Source of the DNA: Naegleria gruberi
Taxonomy: Eukaryota
Assembly: GCA_000004985.1 (NCBI GenBank)
Contig: GG738847.1
DNA length: 64,000 bases
Direction: 5' to 3' (one strand)
Notes under the pieces: generated by a model
Told to the model about the DNA's origin: nothing
The model's database searches: none
What the model saw: the letters and a program-made list of their open reading frames with translations, nothing else
Made by a program: the position numbers and the translations under genes
Part shown: piece after piece, positions 8,198-30,000 of the stretch
Layout of the letters: each line of letters starts with the position of its first letter
How positions within the stretch are numbered: position 1 is the stretch's first letter

Positions 8198-9556
8198 TTA
8201 TTGCTTCTTATTAGCCTTCATTCTTTCCCTTAATTTATTCTTAGAATCGGATGAATTCATTTGAGCTTTTTGTTGTTCCATTCTCAATTTCTCGTAATGT
8301 TTTACTGTCCAGTCACCTCCTTCAATTGAGTAAAAGTCCATTGGATAGATTGGTCTCCATTCAGTGGCTGTTAAAGCTACCTCAGCTTCATAGGCAGTCA
8401 GTAATGGTTTATCAAAGAAGTGACCCCAATCGATTGAGAGACGAGGACAAGCAATTTGAATCCAACACTCAACATCGTGGAATAGTTGAAGTTTGCTTGG
8501 GAAAATTTCACTCAAAAGGAGAGAAACATATGGAATATTCTTTTCGTTCAGTAATCGTTCAATAGTTTCAAGAATTTTTGGAGAACCTTGTCTACCCAAA
8601 GTTCCTAGAATTACACCAAACTTTTTGGCTTTCTTTGCCTTTTCAATGGCATCTTGTCTGATGGAAAATAATTGTGGATGATCATAGTGTTCCTCTGTGA
8701 ATTTCTTTCCATATGGATCATATTTGTAATATTTCAATTCTGGATTTTGAATCATGACACTTTCCAAATGGAATCTACCATCTCCCAAATAAACCATAGT
8801 TTCAATTTGATGATTTTTAGCTAAATCTTTTGGACTTGTGCAACCCAGAACTTCACCAGGTGACAATGGTTTAACTTGAGGAATAAATACAGGAGTTGTG
8901 AAATGTTTGTCCAATTCTGCCTTGGCAGTTCTTAAACTTGAAACAAATTGAATAGTTGCAACCATAGCCATTTTGGTTTCTTTTGGAAAGTTGTTAATCA
9001 TTGATTGAACAAAATAATTAATATCAATTTGAATATCCACAAAAACGTATAGAATATTCTTAATGCAACAATCACTGACAGGAACAAGACAACTGTGAGC
9101 ATAATGCACCATGAAATCAGCACCCAAAGCTCTAGCAGTAAGATCATCTATACAGCATGCTCCGTATGTGACATCTCCCATAATTACTGTACTTGTTTCT
9201 GGACAAAATCTTTCAATAATATCACTAATCACACAACTAAACAAGAGCAATCCTTCAGGAAATTGCAAAGCAACTCTCTTTGGTTTAATTTGTTGAATTC
9301 TATGAATAGTTTTATGAATTTCAAAATTATAATTTGTTGGAAGTGTTTCCTTGATGAGTCTATTCAATTCTTCGTTTTCTAAAATTGAAGCAGGAACACT
9401 TTGTTGTAATTTAATACTAGATGAAAGATTAACTCCTGCATATGGATTTGATTGTTGTTGTTGTTCAGGAGTTTGTCCAATATTGTTGTTATTGTTATTA
9501 CTATCTTCCGATGATGAAGAAGAAACGGCAACAAGACTTGTTTCTTGATTTTCCAT
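8198..9556 (-). CDS. DPH1: Diphthamide biosynthesis protein 1 (2-(3-amino-3-carboxypropyl)histidine synthase subunit 1)
   Basis: 452-aa single-exon ORF. Hallmark DPH1 blocks [60 protein letters not shown] and [12 protein letters not shown]-terminal Ser/Asn/Gln low-complexity extension. Confidence 0.9.
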
Positions 9557-10334: not shown

Positions 10335-11294
10335 ATGCAACTGTTATCTTCAGAAGTTCTCATCACAGTTTTTGATTTTCTGCTCGATATTTCCAATAAT
10401 TGCATAAATATTTATGATTGTGAAATTAGAAAAGTAATTTTTTCACTTCAATCAGTCAACTCTCAATTCAAGCAATTTTATGATGAAAATTATTGGTGGG
10501 AAGTATTGAAAACTCATCTATTGATGAGTCACTCTGTATTGTCAATGTCCGAGAAGGAGATTGTCATGAATATGAAAGAGAAATTGAAACAAAATCCATC
10601 TTTCCAATCATTTCGAAGATGTACTTTATTATTCGAAATGATGAGACGAAAGGGATTTGGTTTAAAAATGAATGATATGAATAATGAAAATGTATTATTT
10701 AATAAGATATTAATTATTGGAATGAAGGGTGTTGGAAAAACCAAATGCATATTAAATTACGTCTATTCTAATGCTTTCCCATATAATCACGAAATTGCAA
10801 TTGAGGATAGCTATAGGAAAATGTCACATTACATTGAAAAGTTTCCAGTGATTGTAGAATTATTCGAGTTAATTGAAATCAATCCAATTAGTGATTACAA
10901 TTTGAAATACGTTAACGAGTCTAACATTGTTATTGTAATGTGTGAATTATATTCTGAAGAATCAGTTCAGTATTTGGAGAGTACTTTATTTCCAGCTATG
11001 GAGGATAAAATAGCAAACCTTCCAACTTTAATTGTAATTAATGATAAGCTCAATAAGGAAAATCATACAAAAAAACGAATTAAGAAACAAAATATCAAAT
11101 CAATTCTAGAAAAGTTTAAAATTCATAATTATTCATTCATAGATATAAGTACAAGTAATTATTCAACGATTGTAAATTTATTTTCTCATTGTACTACTAT
11201 TTTTGCTTTTACATTCCAACAAAATATTGAACTTGTAGAAGTAATTTTAAAAAAGGATAAGAAATTACTCTCCAAAAATTGTGTAATCAATTAA
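10335..11294 (+). CDS. F-box-like N-terminus fused to a degenerate Ras-like small-GTPase domain (predicted pseudo-GTPase)
   Basis: 319-aa ORF. N-terminal LSSEVLITVFDFLLDIS (F-box-like). G1 ILIIGMKGVGKTK. Switch-I-like YNHEIAIEDSYRKM (compare Ras YDPTIEDSYRKQ, where the T35 equivalent is Ala here). No DTAGQ G3 motif (VIVELFELIE instead). G4 degraded to INDKLN. Confidence 0.55.
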   Translation: MQLLSSEVLITVFDFLLDISNNCINIYDCEIRKVIFSLQSVNSQFKQFYDENYWWEVLKTHLLMSHSVLSMSEKEIVMNMKEKLKQNPSFQSFRRCTLLFEMMRRKGFGLKMNDMNNENVLFNKILIIGMKGVGKTKCILNYVYSNAFPYNHEIAIEDSYRKMSHYIEKFPVIVELFELIEINPISDYNLKYVNESNIVIVMCELYSEESVQYLESTLFPAMEDKIANLPTLIVINDKLNKENHTKKRIKKQNIKSILEKFKIHNYSFIDISTSNYSTIVNLFSHCTTIFAFTFQQNIELVEVILKKDKKLLSKNCVIN

Positions 11295-11597
11295 AATTGG
11301 GAGGTGAAGTTATTGTTATTTATTTTTAAAGATCCTAGAATTCTCCTCAAGATCTTCAAGTATTTCCGATAGTGATGGTGATTCTGTATCTTTCTCAATT
11401 TTCTGCATATGACAGCTTTGGTAGGAACTTGGAACTTACAGTAATATTTTTTAAAAGGAAAATGAGGGTGTAAAATCTTTGATTATTTTATCAGTGGTTT
11501 TAAGAGATGAAACTTTGAAAATTGATATATAGGTAGATTACATATCATTCCTCCTAATATGCAAAAAGAAAAACTCAAATCTTGGAGATAGTGTCTA

Positions 11598-11716
11598 AAA
11601 TTGATCTCGAGTGCCGGGAATTGAAAACTCTCGTTCATATCATGGCTACCGGGAATGAAACTTCCTAATTTGGAAGATGACTTCAACAACAATAATAACA
11701 ACAAAACAAATTAACA
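11598..11716. repeat. Dispersed repeat copy 1 (about 120 bp) in gene-free interval
   Basis: Shares the block AAAACTCTCGTTCATA(T/C)CATGG(C/G)TACCGGGAATGAAA(C/T)TTCC...AACAAAACAAATT with copy 2 at about 11938-12044 in the same orientation (about 85% identity by eye). Both copies contain a CTCGAG site at the same relative position. Confidence 0.4.
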
Positions 11717-11937
11717 GTAATAAATTAATGGTTATTAATGTTTATTAAATAGTGACCGTTAGGTCACTGATTGTTAATTAATTATTGATGATTTGTTGTT
11801 GAACAGATACTAACTGTAATAAAAACACATTGCAATCACCGTGACGCCAAATTAACATTTAATAATAACACATTATTAATATAATACCGTGTCGCCAAAT
11901 TCCTTGATAATTATTCATAACTGTAACTTCTTGATCA

Positions 11938-12044
11938 AAAGCACTCGAGTAATTTAACACAGTCAAAACTCTCGTTCATACCATGGGTACCGGGAATGAA
12001 ATTTCCAAATAAGGAATGACCGATATCATTCAACTAACAAAACA
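11938..12044. repeat. Dispersed repeat copy 2, abutting a truncated tRNA-Asp-like fragment
   Basis: Same shared block as copy 1. Its AACAAAACAAATT end is fused directly to the T-loop of a tRNA-like sequence on the opposite strand. Confidence 0.4.
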
Positions 12045-12102
12045 AATTGAACCCGGGTCGCCAGAGTGACAGTCTGGAATGCTACCACTATACACACCCG
12101 AT
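12045..12102 (-). pseudogene. tRNA-Asp(GUC)-like 5' fragment (acceptor 5' strand through T-loop; 3' T-stem, acceptor strand and CCA region absent)
   Basis: Minus strand reads ATCGGGTGTGTATAGTGGTAGCATTCCAGACTGTCACTCTGGCGACCCGGGTTCAATT. D-arm GTATAGTGGTA. Anticodon stem CCAGA/TCTGG pairs perfectly around loop CTGTCAC (anticodon GTC). The variable/T-stem region GACCCGGGTTCAATT is like dictyostelid tRNA-Asp. The sequence then runs into the repeat (TGTTTTGTT) instead of CCCGG plus acceptor. Confidence 0.5.
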
Positions 12103-12295
12103 TCACATTGATGTTCTTAAAAATATATCCTGAACACTCCCTATATACTATTATGTTAGTACGGTGTTTTATTAATGAAAATCACCCACTCATCAAATAA
12201 CTAATAAATATGAAAAATTTTTGTCTGAAAAAATTTCAACACAACAAGATGTTAAAAGACAAGATTTACGTGTTGTTTTCACACAAGTTGGTTGT

Positions 12296-15200
12296 TTATT
12301 GTTGATCTTGTTGCATGGATGGTGGTTGATAGACTTCATCTTGTTGCAATAACAATTCGTCGTCTTCATCTGATTCACTTTCTTCACCATCTTCGAGAAC
12401 TTGAATTTCACTTTCTTGTTGGAAGACATAGTCACCAGGCTTCTTTCTTTCACTCTTCAATTTCTTCAACTTTCTCTTACCCTTTCTAATGTAAACTCTA
12501 GTGAGAGTCTTGATTCTTTCGACAGCTTGTGGATCTCTCATAACCAAACCAACGAATGATAATACCAAGAAAATGATAGTGATAGCAATCAAGATAATTG
12601 GTGAAATATAGTAGGCCTTATAGGAGAAACCATAATTTTCCAAAGCAGTAGCAACATTTTGATTACTTTCTTGATACTTTCTAATTTCAACAGTGTACAT
12701 TAATTCGACAGCCCATCTCACTGGAGAAGAACAAACCAAAACCAATGTATACCATTCCTTAGACATGGTACGAACTGTTGGTTGAACACCACCCAACAAG
12801 GCACACAAAATAATGTACATTACACCAACAAATTCAGCATGAGTTCTTTGAACGAAAACTGAAATGAAATAGCCAAGAGAACTGAAAACAATTTCGAATA
12901 ATAAGAAGAGTCCATAGTATGTGTAAAATTCAGCTTCAGGATTAACGAGGATATACCAGAAAGTAACAAAGACCAATGGATAGATCAACAAGGAAGGAAT
13001 TTCACCAGTCAATTTACCAAGGAAGTAACTCATCTTGTTGATACCATTCTGAGCTTCACGTCTATAGAGTTCCTTATCAGCACCAAAACATTTGAGTGAA
13101 GATTGCATAGCAGCAATGGCAAGAGCAGAAACTGTAACAATACTCATTGGTGCAATCTTATCAATTCTTGGCAATGAACATTGATTACTAATAAATGTTG
13201 GACACAACTTTTGAAGAGTTGATGAAAGAGGACCAATAAAGTCCATGTTAAAGTAGAAACCTCCAATAATTACAGCAAGAGCAAAGTGGAAGAAGAAATC
13301 AAAGAAGACACCCTTGTAGTGACGACTCAATTGAAGCAAAGCACGAAGAGAGAATAAGAGATATTGACCCAAGAACGCAATTGGCTTTCTTTGTCTTTCC
13401 TTAGCAACTTCACTGCCCAACAAAACTTGTTGTGGATCAATAACAGAAGCACCAACTTCTTCATCATCTTCTTGTTCTTGTTCTGATTGTTGAGTTTCAT
13501 TACCATTTCTTGATTTGAGCCATTTCTTTTCATTTTCTTCCTTCTTCAAGTCCCACAAGTGCAACAAACGTTCTGGTTCAAAGTTTGGATCACCAGGTCT
13601 TTCAACATTACCCAAACAAACATCAACAAAAAAGTCTGGAGGATTTTCATAGTTTGGACATTTGAAGCCAATTTCTTCAAAGAATCTCAAAGCATCCTTG
13701 GTTGGACCATTGTAAACAATGCCACCATTCTTACCCATGATAATACAATCGTCAAAGAGGAGGAATACATCATTTCTTGGTCTGAGCATGGTAGAAACAA
13801 CTGTAGTACCACTTTCAGCAGCCAACTTGAAGGCCTTACACAAGAATTTCTTTCTTTCGAGTGGAATTTCATCGAATGGATTATCGACAAATAAACAAAC
13901 TGGATCAGCAACCATTTCAAGAGCCATGTTAACAAAGACTCTGAGTTCTTCATCGAGACCGTGCTTCTTTGATTTACCAATTGTATCATACATAAAGTTT
14001 TCAATACCCAAAACCTTACATGTCTTTTCAACACGTCTACCAACTTGACTGTATGTATAATAACTTGGCAAACGAGAGTGACCAGCAAATCTCAACAATT
14101 CGTGAACCTTCAATTCCTTAGCCATATCAAGTTGCTTTGGGGCAAAGCTGATAATATTTCTGAATTCGTGCGGATCCTTAATTTGTTCATTAATCATAAT
14201 TTTACCATGAACGAAACCCAAGTGATGTCTACCAGAAAGAGTATTGAGCAATGCAGAAGTTGCTTCAGAATCAACACCAATAATACATGTAGTTCTTCCG
14301 TGATAGACACGACCAGTGACACCTTCGAAAATAACTTCTTCACTCTTCTTTCTGATATATGACAAATCCTCAAAGGCATAATCAATTGTAAAGTTCTTCT
14401 TTGAGAATGGTGGTTCATTGACGAGAGAACCAGTACTATCATAATTGAATTGTTCATTTCCTTGAATAAAGTTGGCAATATTAATACCAATGTTGGCAAG
14501 ACCATTTTGTCCTGAGATTTCTTGGTCTTGTTTAATCTTCTTTTGCTTCATCTTCTTCTTCTTGTAAGAGGCAGTGACACATCTGACAACAACGAAAGTG
14601 ACCAAAACGAGGAAGACAACAACGAACATTAACAAGATACCCAAATAGAAGGATTGTTGCTTGGCAGAACCTTCTGGACAATAGGAGAACCATTGACAAC
14701 GTTTAGGATAAGTAGAGCCAGCAGCACAGTGATAACCAGATGGACACAACAACATTGAGTTGGTATTAGGGCAATAATAACCAGCAGTACAAGCAAGTGG
14801 TTCCTTAGTACCTCTTGGGCAATAATAACCATCTTCACACAAGACTTTGCTTGACAAGGTTGGACAATAGTAACCTTCTGGACAATAGTGCTCATCACTA
14901 CCATAAGTACCAGTTGGACAGTATTGAGTTCTGTTACCAATTTGTTCCAAACATGGAGTTGGAGTCATAGAGTATGGAGTTTCACAATAGTTCAATGCAG
15001 GACAAGCATTTACGAGAGTAGTGCCTGTAGTGTCAAGTCCTTGAGTAGCTAATGGACAATATTGACCATTTCTACAAGTGTATAATTGACTTCTAGTTTT
15101 TCTTGCAAGATAACCTGGTGGTACTGGAATAGACATCAAAGGGTTCAAACAAATTTGACCATCAGGACATCTTTGCTCAGTAGAGGAACCTTCAATTCCA

Positions 15201-17403
15201 CAAGTTGTTTCAAATGTTGAGGAAGGTGAACAAGCAGTAGGTGCAGTCATGGCCGAATCTTTACATTTGAATCCAACAGGACAAGGTCTTCTACGACCTT
15301 CGTTATTGGTTGGACAGTAAAATCCTGGTTCACATTTAAAGACCATTGTTGGTCTAATTGTGTGATAACCAGCAGAAATAGAAACAGTATTGGCGTAACC
15401 TTCAGCAAGAGTTTTCCAGAATCACCATATCTTGGACAAGTCCAACCTCCATTACACATTGAGAAGTAACCAATAAAATCGAATGCAGTATACTTGGTTG
15501 GATATTTCTTACAAGCTTCAGTAAATTTAGTCAATGAAGATGGAGGATTTGAAGAAGCCAACAAGGTGCAAATATCTTGCAATCTTATTCTGGCATCAAT
15601 ATCAAAGGCCTTTCTAGAAAGGACAGCAAAGATGTGTTGTGCATTTTCAGAAACATAAATGTCATTAATTTTACCATCACTGTTCAATAATGCAGTTTGT
15701 TGCAATGTAAATAAGCTTGAACTAGAAGTGGAAGCAGAAGTGTCAGTACAAGCATACTCTTGGAAGGAAAATACTTCAATACTTTCTCTTGTGGCAATGT
15801 TGATGGTGTGATAAAATGTTGAATAGGCATCAGTGATAGCAGTGTCACTTGTTTTGTACATTCCAATAACCATCTTTGAAGGAACAGCTGATGTGGTTTT
15901 CAAATCTGATTCCTTATTAGGTCTGTTAGTACAGGTTCCACTCTTTGAGTATTGAGGTTTGGTAGTTGATGTATAAGAAGTTGAGCATGTTGTGTCAGCT
16001 GGTATACCAACGGCCTTGTATATGCCAGCTGGGTCAGAACTAATATCAGTTACATCCTGACTTGCCATTTCTGGAAGGTTAAAGACAAATAATCTTGGGC
16101 CGAAAGCATTTGCAGAGGCTGTAGTTGAAGCAACACCAACAGCAACCCAAACAGATTGGGAAGTCTTAGCAAGAGTACCATAACATTCAGTAAATGCACT
16201 CACAGAATAAATACTTTCACCAGAGACACCATGTGTATAAATGATTGAGGTCTTCTTTGTTAAGTCAACAGGTGAGTCATTTGGCGTACCAACGAGTTGA
16301 ATCAAATTGACTTGTGACTTGGATTGAATTAAAAGAAGAGGTCTACTGGCTTTAACTGAATTACAGTCAACCTTTGATGAATATGTTGGGTCAGCACCAA
16401 ATTGTCCATGAGCAAAACCGAAAATCTTTCTTTCCTCAGTTTGGTCAGCAAATGCCCATTTATAAAGTGTAGAACCCTTGTAAATGATAATACCATTGGT
16501 AGAAGTAGAAGTACCATATGAGAGAACAGCCATATGAGTTGCAGTTCCAAGAGTATCAATGTAGGCAATTGTTTGCAAATCTTGCACAAATTCGCTTGAG
16601 GACAATTTGGTTGTTGTATCAATGGTAAGAGCAATAGTTTTAGAAGATGAAACTGTGAGAGTACCAGTAGTATCCAATTTAAGAACCAATAATGTTTGAG
16701 TTGACAAGGTAACATAAATTGTTGCCTCAGTAGAGCTAGTTCTATAGACAGCCATCTTACTTGGTTTATCTGTTAAAGCAGTTTTAGCATCAAGTACTTG
16801 ATAAGAGTAGGCCAATTGTTCAGTAGTCATATCAAGAACAAGCAAATGTCTATTGGTCAATACTAGTAAATATTGTTTGGCACCATCAGCTGACATTTCC
16901 AAAGGTTTAGCAGCTCTAACAAAGAAACAACGATTGTTTTCGGATTGTGATGATTGATCAGTAGTGGTAACATTTCCTCCAGAATAGTCTTCCTTATAAA
17001 TTTTAACAATATTATCAACATCTTGATCTTTCACACAAATCATGTTATTTTCAGTTGATGTAATTGGTGTCTTGTCTGTTATTTTGGTATATAAACATTG
17101 TGCACCAGTGGCATCACAATTAAAAATGTCAGGATCTCTAAAAGTGATTGGTTGACTTGCTCTAAAGTTATTATATGTACACCATGATGGTCTTGAAGTG
17201 GATAAAGATGGATCACATAATCCAAAGGCTGATTTAACTTGTTCACCAGATAATGCAGCACACCAGTCTGGAGGTGTGGCAGCAAGAGTTGAAGCACAAC
17301 TCAAAGTAATCATCAACAAGATGGAGACGATTAAATATCGAACAGCAACACGTTGTTGTGCTTGTCCTTTCAACAATGGTCTATTATCATTACGTATCAT
17401 CAT
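12296..17403 (-). CDS. ABCG-type (NBD then TMD) half-transporter-like protein with huge extracellular N-terminal domain and degenerate ATPase motifs; two ORF segments joined across a frame break near 15350-15410
   Basis: Upstream segment 15247..17403: signal peptide MMIRNDNRPLLKGQAQQRVAVRYLIVSILLMITLSCASTLAA, then a 700-aa Ser/Thr-rich ectodomain. Downstream segment 12296..15346: multiple CxxGxYCP cysteine repeats (CEPGFYCP, CPEGYYCP, CEDGYYCP, CTAGYYCP), then TM FYLGILLMFVVVFLVLVTFVVV. ABC domain with degenerate Walker A IIGVDSEATSALLNTLSGR (Lys replaced by Ala), degenerate signature HGLDEELRV and Walker B CLFVDNPFDE (Glu replaced by Asn). Typical ABCG block STMLRPRNDVFLLFDDCIIMGKNGGIVYNGPTKDALRFFEEIGFKCPNYENPPDFFVDV. 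Six-helix TMD. Acidic tail. Confidence 0.8.
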
Positions 17404-27013: not shown

Positions 27014-30000
27014 TTAAAGTTCAGAATCATCATCACCAATCTTTTTCCTCACTGTTGACTTCTTTAACGAGACACCACCACCAAGAATGTTTGTACCAGC
27101 TTTTGGATCGTCCTTCTTGGCAGTTGATGCTGTGAGACGACTTGTTGTACTTGCATTTTTGAGATCTTGTTTAAGTTTTTCCTTCTTAAGCTTTTCTTCT
27201 TCTGCCTTCTTTTTCTTTTCGTCGGCCTTTTGTTGTTGAATATTCTTGTCGGCAGCTTGTTTAAATTGTTGAACAAAGGCATCAATCATTTGGAAGAATT
27301 TGTCTGGTTCTTTCATAAGATCGTCCTTAGTTTCATTGTACAATTCTGCGAGCTCTGTTAATTGATTCTTCATAGCTTCCATATCTTCCTTGATCTTGTT
27401 AATGGTATTGTCAACCTTCTCACAGAATGGTTGCATTTTTTCAACAAATTTGTCTCCATCAAGTTGTTCTTCAATGGCTTCTCTAATTTGAGTTTGTAAA
27501 ATGTTTTGTCCTTTTTTAAGTTCTTCCAAATCATCTTCCAAAGAGGAAATGTTCACTCTGGTGGCAGCTTGAACGTGTTCTAATTCTGTATCAAAACCAG
27601 CAACTTCTGGTTCGTTGTCTTGGACAAACTTGACAATATATTGGAGGAGAGAACTCTTACCGTCACCAGTCTTAGTATCATTCAACTTGGCAAGTGATTT
27701 GAGTTTAAAACCATAACTGATCTTATTCTTTTGTTTACCATTCAAAAAGTTACCAATTGTAAGAATAATACCCAACAATCTGATGAAATTCTTAGAGTTT
27801 TGCATTTCTTTACAGGCTAATGTAAGATTTTGAATATCAGGTCTAATTTTACCACTGATATCAGGGAATTTAAATTTAAATTCCCACGCATCAAGTCTTC
27901 CTTTGAGATTTGGAATTCCATCCATGACTTTGAAGAATTTATCAGGTTCTGCTAATTCATCCATTGGTCCATCATATGTATTGACAGTATCAATTTCTTC
28001 TCTCTCAGGAGCAATTTGCTTAATTGTACCAACATTATCAGAAGTAACAACAGCTTCATCGAGAGCAATAATAGCTTTCTTCAATGATTCATAACTTGTA
28101 CCTCTCAATGAACCTAATTGAAGGGAAACAGCATAACTACGTTTTGCATCCAACATTGATTTAACTTCCTTCTTCTTTTCTGTTGGCTTAACTTCTTTGT
28201 TTGGATCTTCCTTTTTCTTTGTAGAGAAACATGATGTCAAATGATCCAAATCTATTTCCTCAATAATGGAATTTGTCTTATTTGCAATACCTTTTGTCAT
28301 AAATACGGTATTGGTAAGTGTTGTCTTATTAATTTGGTCAAAGTGAACATTTCTGGTTGCTTCTTTTGGAGCTCTATCTGGAAGAACAGGTAATCCACCA
28401 CCAACAGCAGCACCTCTTCCAAAACCTCCTGGAACCATTGGTACACCTCTTCCAAAACCTGGTGGCATAGGAACACCCATACCAGGTGGCATTGGTACAC
28501 CTCCCATTCCTGGAGGCATTGGAACACCACCACCAGGAGGAGGAGGCACACCACCCATACCAGGAGGAGGAGGCACGCCTCCCATACCAGGTGGAGGATT
28601 GGAACACCTCCCATTCCTGGAGGCATTGGAATACCTGATCCTAAAGGAGGAGGAACACCGCCCATACCAGGTGGAGGAGGAACACCAAAACCTGGAGGAG
28701 GAGGAATACCACTATCCATTCCTGGAGGCATTGGAATACCTGATCCTGGAGGTGGTGGAATACCACCAAAACCTGGAGGAGGAGGAACAAATCCCATATC
28801 ACCACCAGGTGGAGGAGGAACAAATCCTGAGCCACCAGGAGGTGGAGGAACAAATCCAGTAGATCCAGGAGGTGGAGGCACGCCAAAATCACCACCAGGA
28901 GGTGGAGGCACAAATCCTGAGCTACCAGGTGGAAGTGGTACTGAACCACCAGGTGGAGGAGGAACGAATCCTGTCGAACCAGGTGGAGGAGGAACAGATC
29001 CAGTACTAGCTACTGTGCTAGTTGGAGGTACCTTAATAGGATTACTTTTGATAGATGAAATTTCTTTTTCGATGGCCGCAATAGTCTCCTTTAGCTTGGT
29101 TTCGTTTTCTTGATGCTTTTTGAGATCTGCTTGTAACTTTTCAATCTTTGATTTTCCTTCCTTTTCAACCTTTTCGGTTTCGTCTGTCACCTCCTTAACT
29201 TGATTTTTAACATCATCGTCTTGATCGCTTGAGTCTAATTTCTTTGTCCAAGTTTCCTTTTCCTCATGGAGCTTAATTTTTGATGCCACAGATTCAGAAA
29301 GTTCCTTACTGATTGTCTCTATTTCAACCTTCAGGTCTTCAATCTTCTTCTTGTTATCTTCACATTCTTTTTGAATATTTTGTTTCTCCGATTCGAGTTT
29401 TTGAACAAGTTCATTAATAATTTGCTCATTTTGTTGTCTTTCGTACTCAATTTTGTGTAACTTTTCATTCTGTTCTTGTTTAAATTTGTATTGAGAGTCT
29501 TCTAAATCAATAATTTGACTTTGGTTCAATCTGACTTGTTCTTCCAACTTGATTTCCAAATTAGTCCAATATTCTACATTTCCTGTTTCTCTGGACTGCT
29601 TTAAACTTCTCTTAACAAGTGCTAACATATTTTTCCAAGCTTCAAGAACGGTTTCTCTGTCCAAATCTCCATCTTTCATCTTTAAAACAATGTTAAGTAA
29701 TCTTTGAAGGATGTTAAGCATACTGGTCATGGATGCTTCGTTTAACATCAAGTTCAAAAGTTTTACAATTTCAGTTGGGTCACTTAAATCTTTAAGGACA
29801 GCGTGAGCATCTCCAAGATCACTGATTTTGTCTTCGAATCTTTCAATTTCTTTACTCAGATCCATTAATGTTTCTTCATTTTCATTACCTCCATAAGAAT
29901 TGGCAAGTTCATTCTTCAATTCATCTACTAACTCAACCATACCTAAATTTCTCATTTCCTTCTTGATGAGAGATTTACTACCTTCATCAGGTGCATTTGT

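Follow-up and report, generated by a model that had tools for sequence, protein, structure and literature searches.

Our analysis of a 64,000-nt stretch of Naegleria gruberi DNA (hereafter the window; GC content about 33%) points to a nuclear tRNA-Asp(GUC) gene that has very probably been split within its T-loop by 421 bp of non-coding, AT-rich mobile DNA and is now a pseudogene. Events of this type are already known; within the reach of our searches, the repeat family found in the insert is undescribed.

The 5′ part of the gene reads TCGGGTG-TG-TATAGTGGTAGCATT-CCAGA-CTGTCAC-TCTGG-CGAC-CCGGG-TTCAATT on the minus strand, comprising the acceptor strand TCGGGTG, the D arm, the anticodon arm CCAGA-CTGTCAC-TCTGG, the variable region CGAC, the T stem CCGGG and the T-loop TTCAATT (12051-12045). 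This part, running from the acceptor through the T-loop, had been recognized in the original prediction, where it was described as a truncated fragment. The missing 3′ end is, however, present on the same strand, 426 bp away. Downstream of the second repeat copy described below, from 11625 downwards, the minus strand reads TTCAATT-CCCGG-CACTCGA-G-ATCAATTTT. CCCGG complements the T-stem strand CCGGG to give a 5-bp T stem, and CACTCGA complements the acceptor strand TCGGGTG to give a 7-bp stem of six Watson-Crick pairs and one G-U pair. The following G is the discriminator base expected in tRNA-Asp, and the T4 run in ATCAATTTT, 6 nt beyond it, provides a terminator. The string TTCAATTCCCGGCACTCGAG at 11625-11606, earlier described as resembling a T-loop plus a 3′ T-stem strand, is present, but it is in fact the 3′ end of this same tRNA gene.

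The match between the two parts is specific. The 3′ part is the sole 12-mer in the 64 kb, on both strands, that can complete both stems, and chance would supply about 0.009 such 12-mers in the 1 kb that follows on the tRNA strand, an expectation that leaves the T-loop, G73 and the terminator out of account. When the two parts are joined, ARAGORN calls a 70-nt tRNA-Asp(gtc), and the minimum-energy fold is a cloverleaf. In the native window, ARAGORN finds 0 tRNA genes, and Rfam gives no tRNA match either in the whole window or in a permissive scan of 11400-12300. The cloverleaf emerges only once the 426 bp are taken out. Since both halves are present and fit each other, the gene is interrupted rather than truncated. 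The D arm of the joined gene is 1 nt short between the acceptor and the D stem (base 9 is missing) and contains one A-C mismatch (A12-C23), irregularities that may represent early decay.

Table 1 Features of the interrupted tRNA-Asp gene and its insert (positions in the window)
Feature	Position	Strand	Description
tRNA-Asp(GTC) 5′ part	12045..12101	-	acceptor 5′ strand through T-loop
insert	11624..12044	-	421 bp, located in the T-loop
repeat copy R_A	11965..12044	-	80 nt
spacer	11709..11964	-	256 nt, AT-rich, non-coding
repeat copy R_B	11624..11708	-	85 nt
second T-loop copy CAATT	11619..11623	-	putative target-site duplication
tRNA-Asp 3′ part	11605..11618	-	T stem CCCGG, acceptor 3′ strand CACTCGA, discriminator G
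long imperfect palindrome	11682..11803	+	R_B tail, TTAATT, first ~90 nt of spacer

The insert is built of two direct repeat copies, R_A and R_B, separated by a spacer (Table 1). In the tRNA sense, each copy starts with TGTTTTGTT and finishes with GAGAGTTTT. Leaving gaps aside, the copies agree at 90.7% of aligned columns; a further 15 columns are gaps, which fall into about four indels. Over a 52-nt core they are 88% identical. Motifs of this core occur exactly twice in the 64 kb, against about 0.01-0.04 occurrences expected, and no dinucleotide shuffle contained two matches. The presence of two copies 336-341 bp apart agrees with the original prediction, but the length of about 120 bp given there does not: similarity past the limits of R_A and R_B is not above chance (572/2000 and 899/2000 shuffles score as high), and the copies therefore measure 80 and 85 nt. 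A tandem segmental duplication was considered and rejected, since neither the flanks of the two repeats nor the spacer and the gene flanks are similar above chance.

On the plus strand, R_A ends in an A-rich tail, TTCAACTAACAAAACA, which adjoins the T-loop heptamer, and R_B ends in TTCAACAACAATAATAACAACAAAACA, reported by TRF as a (CAA)n array. The R_B tail contains 17 A, 6 C, 4 T and no G in 27 nt; the tail common to the two copies is free of G and varies in length. Neither a noteworthy ORF nor terminal inverted repeats are present in the insert. Rfam gives no ribozyme or intron match in the window or in the permissive scan of 11400-12300, which returned only a chance MicX match. A retrozyme-like or self-splicing reading is disfavored because no group I intron, hammerhead or other ribozyme was matched in Rfam.

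The spacer contains the direct repeat and the hairpin that had been predicted between the copies: the 16-nt repeat ACCGTG(A/T)CGCCAAATT occurs at 11838 and 11886, and a 7-8-bp hairpin lies at 11750-11769. It also carries small tandem duplications with a period of 43-48, and its end at 11714-11709 reads TTAATT, like the T-loop heptamer minus C. The R_B tail, this TTAATT and the adjoining part of the spacer form an imperfect palindrome of ~120 nt (DNA fold z = -5.8), with the perfect hairpin 11750-11769 at its center and a right arm in which part of the R_B tail with the AATTAAC junction recurs in inverted orientation. Each repeat copy also holds a small hairpin, TTCC-N6-GGAA, at 11662-11675 in R_B and at 12003-12016 in R_A. 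Its stem is conserved and its 6-nt loop is inverted between the copies (TAATTT vs AAATAA), which looks like a hairpin-flip mutation. At 11941-11949 on the plus strand, 14 nt from the R_A end, GCACTCGAG matches, in inverted orientation, the final 9 nt of the acceptor 3′ strand of the tRNA-Asp, an identity that in part reflects the CTCGAG palindrome. The tRNA-like TGGCG(A/T)CACGG motifs of the spacer are not significant alone (70/500 shuffles), and a longer alignment of the spacer to the tRNA-repeat junction is marginal (13/500 shuffles).

The T-loop bases CAATT stand at both junctions of the insert; including the TT that closes R_B extends them to TTCAATT. Because a T-loop has 7 nt, one of these T-loop copies must be a duplication made on insertion. 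Depending on how the junctions are read, the target duplication measures between 1 and 7 bp; it is 5 bp if the element has TG...TT ends and 3 bp if it has TG...CA ends. On the plus strand, AATTGAA follows the R_A tail and AATT-AA follows the R_B tail. In the tRNA sense, the latter string lies directly before R_B and is within one edit of TTCAATT, for which the chance expectation is 1-2%. Among the possibilities raised in the original prediction, an insertion that destroyed a tRNA gene is supported by the two fitting halves and by the T-loop bases repeated at either junction. A tRNA-derived SINE-like family finds no such support: the tRNA piece belongs to the host gene and not to the repeat, R_B lacks a tRNA head, and the window yielded no copy beyond these two.

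The same region could in principle have arisen without a mobile element, if a break in the T-loop was filled with duplicated or templated sequence from nearby, whether by slippage, by microhomology-mediated repair or by hairpin-driven duplication. The small tandem duplications of the spacer, the loop inverted between R_A and R_B, the strong palindrome and the AATT microhomology common to the junctions would all suit such a rearrangement. We nevertheless regard it as improbable, as a plain tandem duplication predicts similar flanks, which are not observed, the spacer is unlike the sequence at either side of the gene, and the origin of the repeat would still be unexplained.

We then considered the consequence for the gene. 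Its B box now reads GGTTCAATTtg, and the insert contains six runs of T4 or longer on the tRNA strand, the first of them 3 nt past the T-loop. A T4 run probably suffices as a polymerase III stop in this genome, since the 5S rRNA gene of the window ends directly in TTTT. With a broken B box and these T4+ runs, polymerase III would stop and no mature tRNA would be possible. Judged by its sequence, the gene is most likely dead, with no full precursor made; the locus has neither the contiguous cloverleaf nor the intact B box nor the terminator-free interior of a functional tRNA gene.

A functional split gene, in which the 426 nt would be a giant non-canonical intron of the T-loop, is accordingly hard to sustain against these polymerase III stops, and we consider it extremely improbable. 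Non-canonical tRNA introns are found in archaea and some algae, both halves of the gene are well preserved and exactly complementary, and a fold of the full-length RNA retains the acceptor and T stems. Against an intron stand also the lack of any group I or other ribozyme match in Rfam, the duplicated T-loop bases and the terminal repeats, which mark an insertion and not an intron, and the nucleotide loss and A-C mismatch of the D arm, which are consistent with decay. For annotation, the locus should be listed as a pseudogene, neither as a truncated fragment nor as a SINE; tRNA finders miss it.

As to the nature of the inserted DNA, one model is that the insert consists of a retroposon present twice, head to tail and antisense to the tRNA. 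Of these copies, E1 would be 330 nt long (11715-12044) and E2 83-85 nt (11624-11708). Both would finish at the same 3′ end, marked by an A-rich (CAA)n tail, but would reach unequally far in the 5′ direction, each being 5′-truncated, so that the short unit, R_B, would correspond to the 3′ end of the longer one, which consists of the spacer and R_A. Both copies would have been inserted at the same T-loop heptamer, either by repeated use of one site or by a template jump, which would give the same picture from a single event. A common 3′ end combined with differing 5′ extents is the usual result of target-primed reverse transcription with 5′ truncation. What is observed here is an A-rich tail that abuts the duplication, with E1 and E2 alike at the tail-side end only, and the lack of terminal inverted repeats favors a retroposon as well. 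Under this model, the T-loop heptamer after each copy would suggest an element with specificity for the T-arm of tRNA genes. The middle heptamer, however, is part of the larger palindrome and so may not be a target duplication, and the geometry of the insert is equally compatible with an LTR-type element. Weighing these points, we prefer two tandem retroposon copies, a reading that we consider plausible but somewhat short of probable.

The LTR-type alternative is a single small non-autonomous element of TRIM size (421 bp), in which R_A and R_B would be the terminal repeats, the 256-nt spacer the internal domain and CAATT the 5-bp duplication. Its architecture agrees with much of what is seen: the insert starts and stops with the direct repeats, whose limits are sharp, the total size is below 1 kb, a 5-bp duplication is typical of TRIMs (PMC3532108), R_B takes the form TG...CA if two more bases are counted, and a repeat divergence of ~9% with four indels is compatible with the few irregularities in the tRNA halves. 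The signals needed for priming are missing, however. There is no TGG-type primer-binding site within about 60 nt after R_A and no purine run or polypurine tract before R_B, in either orientation; GCACTCGAG is unfit as a primer-binding site because it is too distant from the repeat and lacks TGG. TG...CA ends would cut the duplication to 3 bp, the repeats are below the 100-350 bp quoted for TRIMs, and the model would leave unexplained both the T-loop-like heptamer that precedes R_B and the common end with its A-rich, microsatellite-like tail. We hold this alternative to be doubtful. The two-copy retroposon is preferred over it because it would explain the tail, the middle heptamer and the absence of a primer-binding site and a polypurine tract.

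A DNA transposon offers a further candidate, namely two tandem non-autonomous derivatives of a Dada-like element placed at the T-loop. The in-gene tRNA site, an apparent duplication of up to 7 bp (TTCAATT) and the absence of terminal inverted repeats fit this proposal. Deletion derivatives of a cut-and-paste element retain both termini, however, whereas E1 and E2 have one common end. No sub-terminal inverted repeat common with the target is found, no transposase is encoded among the 24 of 29 window ORFs of at least 250 aa that were scanned, and Dada is not reported in Naegleria in the literature searched. Such derivatives are thus a quite improbable source of the insert.

The exact position of the insert within the gene is a hint of a mobile element with tRNA genes as its target. 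N. gruberi is reported to have only about 0.28% transposable elements (preprint, bioRxiv 10.64898/2026.06.24.734286), so a chance landing inside a 70-bp gene would be unusual. One may speculate further, though we think it unlikely, that the repeat is the 3′ end of an undescribed Naegleria retroelement which recognizes the palindromic T-arm CCGGG-TTCAATT-CCCGG, inserts at the T-loop and cuts both borders of the stem-loop. If true, no non-LTR-type element known before it would have the coding body of tRNA genes as its target. Should other copies share the T-loop position in other tRNA genes, they would define a Naegleria element that targets the tRNA-gene interior, and would add to the examples of a ‘safe-haven in multicopy RNA genes’ strategy, so far known from Dada transposons and from rDNA- and snRNA-specific retrotransposons.

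The repeat has no further copy elsewhere in the 64-kb window, searches with an exact 27-mer were negative in JGI metagenomes, IMG/VR and GTDB genomes, and the 31-mer of the tRNA is absent from JGI metagenomes. With no second locus in the window or in these collections, the insert is to be regarded as a putative mobile element. The 24 scanned ORFs of at least 250 aa (of 29 in the window) encode ordinary host proteins; a reverse transcriptase, an integrase or a transposase is not among them. Neither N. lovaniensis nor N. fowleri yielded an empty orthologous site: synteny around the N. fowleri DPH1 gene stops after two genes, and the ABCG orthologue loci of both species, which have neither the tRNA nor the repeat, are not syntenic on the tRNA side. 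The literature searched yielded nothing on Naegleria tRNA introns or on the repeat.

The ORF at 8198-9556 on the minus strand encodes a diphthamide synthesis protein that is 100% identical to an N. gruberi predicted protein, followed by N. fowleri at 85%. In the ENA metagenome ERZ929261, the 1.6-kb contig k127_543749 (L001) encodes the N. gruberi DPH1 protein with 100% identity, and the sample thus contains N. gruberi-like DNA. The ORF at 10335-11294 on the plus strand (319 aa) carries a Ras domain over residues 124-287, but only 208 aa, 65% of the ORF, are covered by the public protein model of N. gruberi, and no orthologue of this Ras-like neighbor was found in other Naegleria species. On the other side, the minus-strand ORFs 12296-15346 and 15247-17403 both align to single ABCG genes of ~1,720 aa in N. 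lovaniensis and N. fowleri. Identity to these orthologues is 77-78% for the C-terminal ORF and only 43-45% for the N-terminal one, and the overlap of the two ORFs in different frames suggests an intron or a frameshift. The 5S rRNA gene at 1087-1205 on the plus strand (Rfam, 100 bits) is the only Rfam match of the standard window scan. It stands alone, outside any rDNA unit, is intact and without an insert, and has TTTT at its end. The sole other repeat family in the window is a dense array of 24-33-bp coding repeats at 28440-29005, which forms the proline/glycine-rich FH1 region of a formin gene between its GBD/FH3 and FH2 parts.

Several known systems resemble this insert in part. Site-specific non-LTR retrotransposons occupy one fixed position in conserved RNA genes, including R2 in 28S, Mutsu in 5S, Keno and Utopia in U2, and Dewa in the tRNA-Leu spacer (PMC3706591, PMC4640811). 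The Naegleria insert is like them in hitting a conserved RNA gene in one orientation with a short target duplication, and in the common 3′ end with variable 5′ truncation. It is unlike them in that no coding master copy is known here and one locus is seen. In the literature searched, we found no report of a non-LTR element inside tRNA coding sequence or in Naegleria.

The Dada superfamily of DNA transposons targets fixed sites in tRNA and snRNA genes (Kojima and Jurka 2013, PMC3706591). Dada elements insert inside tRNA genes at a family-specific site with 6-7-bp duplications and lack terminal inverted repeats; they are present in the protist Perkinsus, tandem copies with a duplicated target between them have been reported, and the Dada-tL target GCGTTCA overlaps the T-arm (PMC3706591). 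This precedent makes an in-gene, site-specific element plausible. The Naegleria insert shares with Dada the target within a tRNA gene, the absence of terminal inverted repeats and the tandem units with a target repeat between them; it differs in that its units have one common terminus, direct-repeat ends and no known transposase. TRIMs resemble it in being below 1 kb, with terminal direct repeats, a non-coding interior and, if the duplication is read as 5 bp, a 4-5-bp duplication (PMC3532108). Unlike TRIMs, the insert has repeats of only 80-85 bp and no primer-binding site or polypurine tract, and it is single-copy as far as could be tested.

Dictyostelid TRE elements had been brought up in the original prediction for comparison; this does not apply, the genome being that of N. 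gruberi. TRE5, TRE3 and DGLT-A of Dictyostelium and yeast Ty3 land upstream or downstream of tRNA genes and spare the gene. The Naegleria insert, in contrast, lies inside the gene and destroys it. These elements are tRNA-gene-associated retrotransposons (PMC5006619, PMC5911963), and the Naegleria insert is like them in being associated with a gene of polymerase III in a genome that is compact and poor in transposons.
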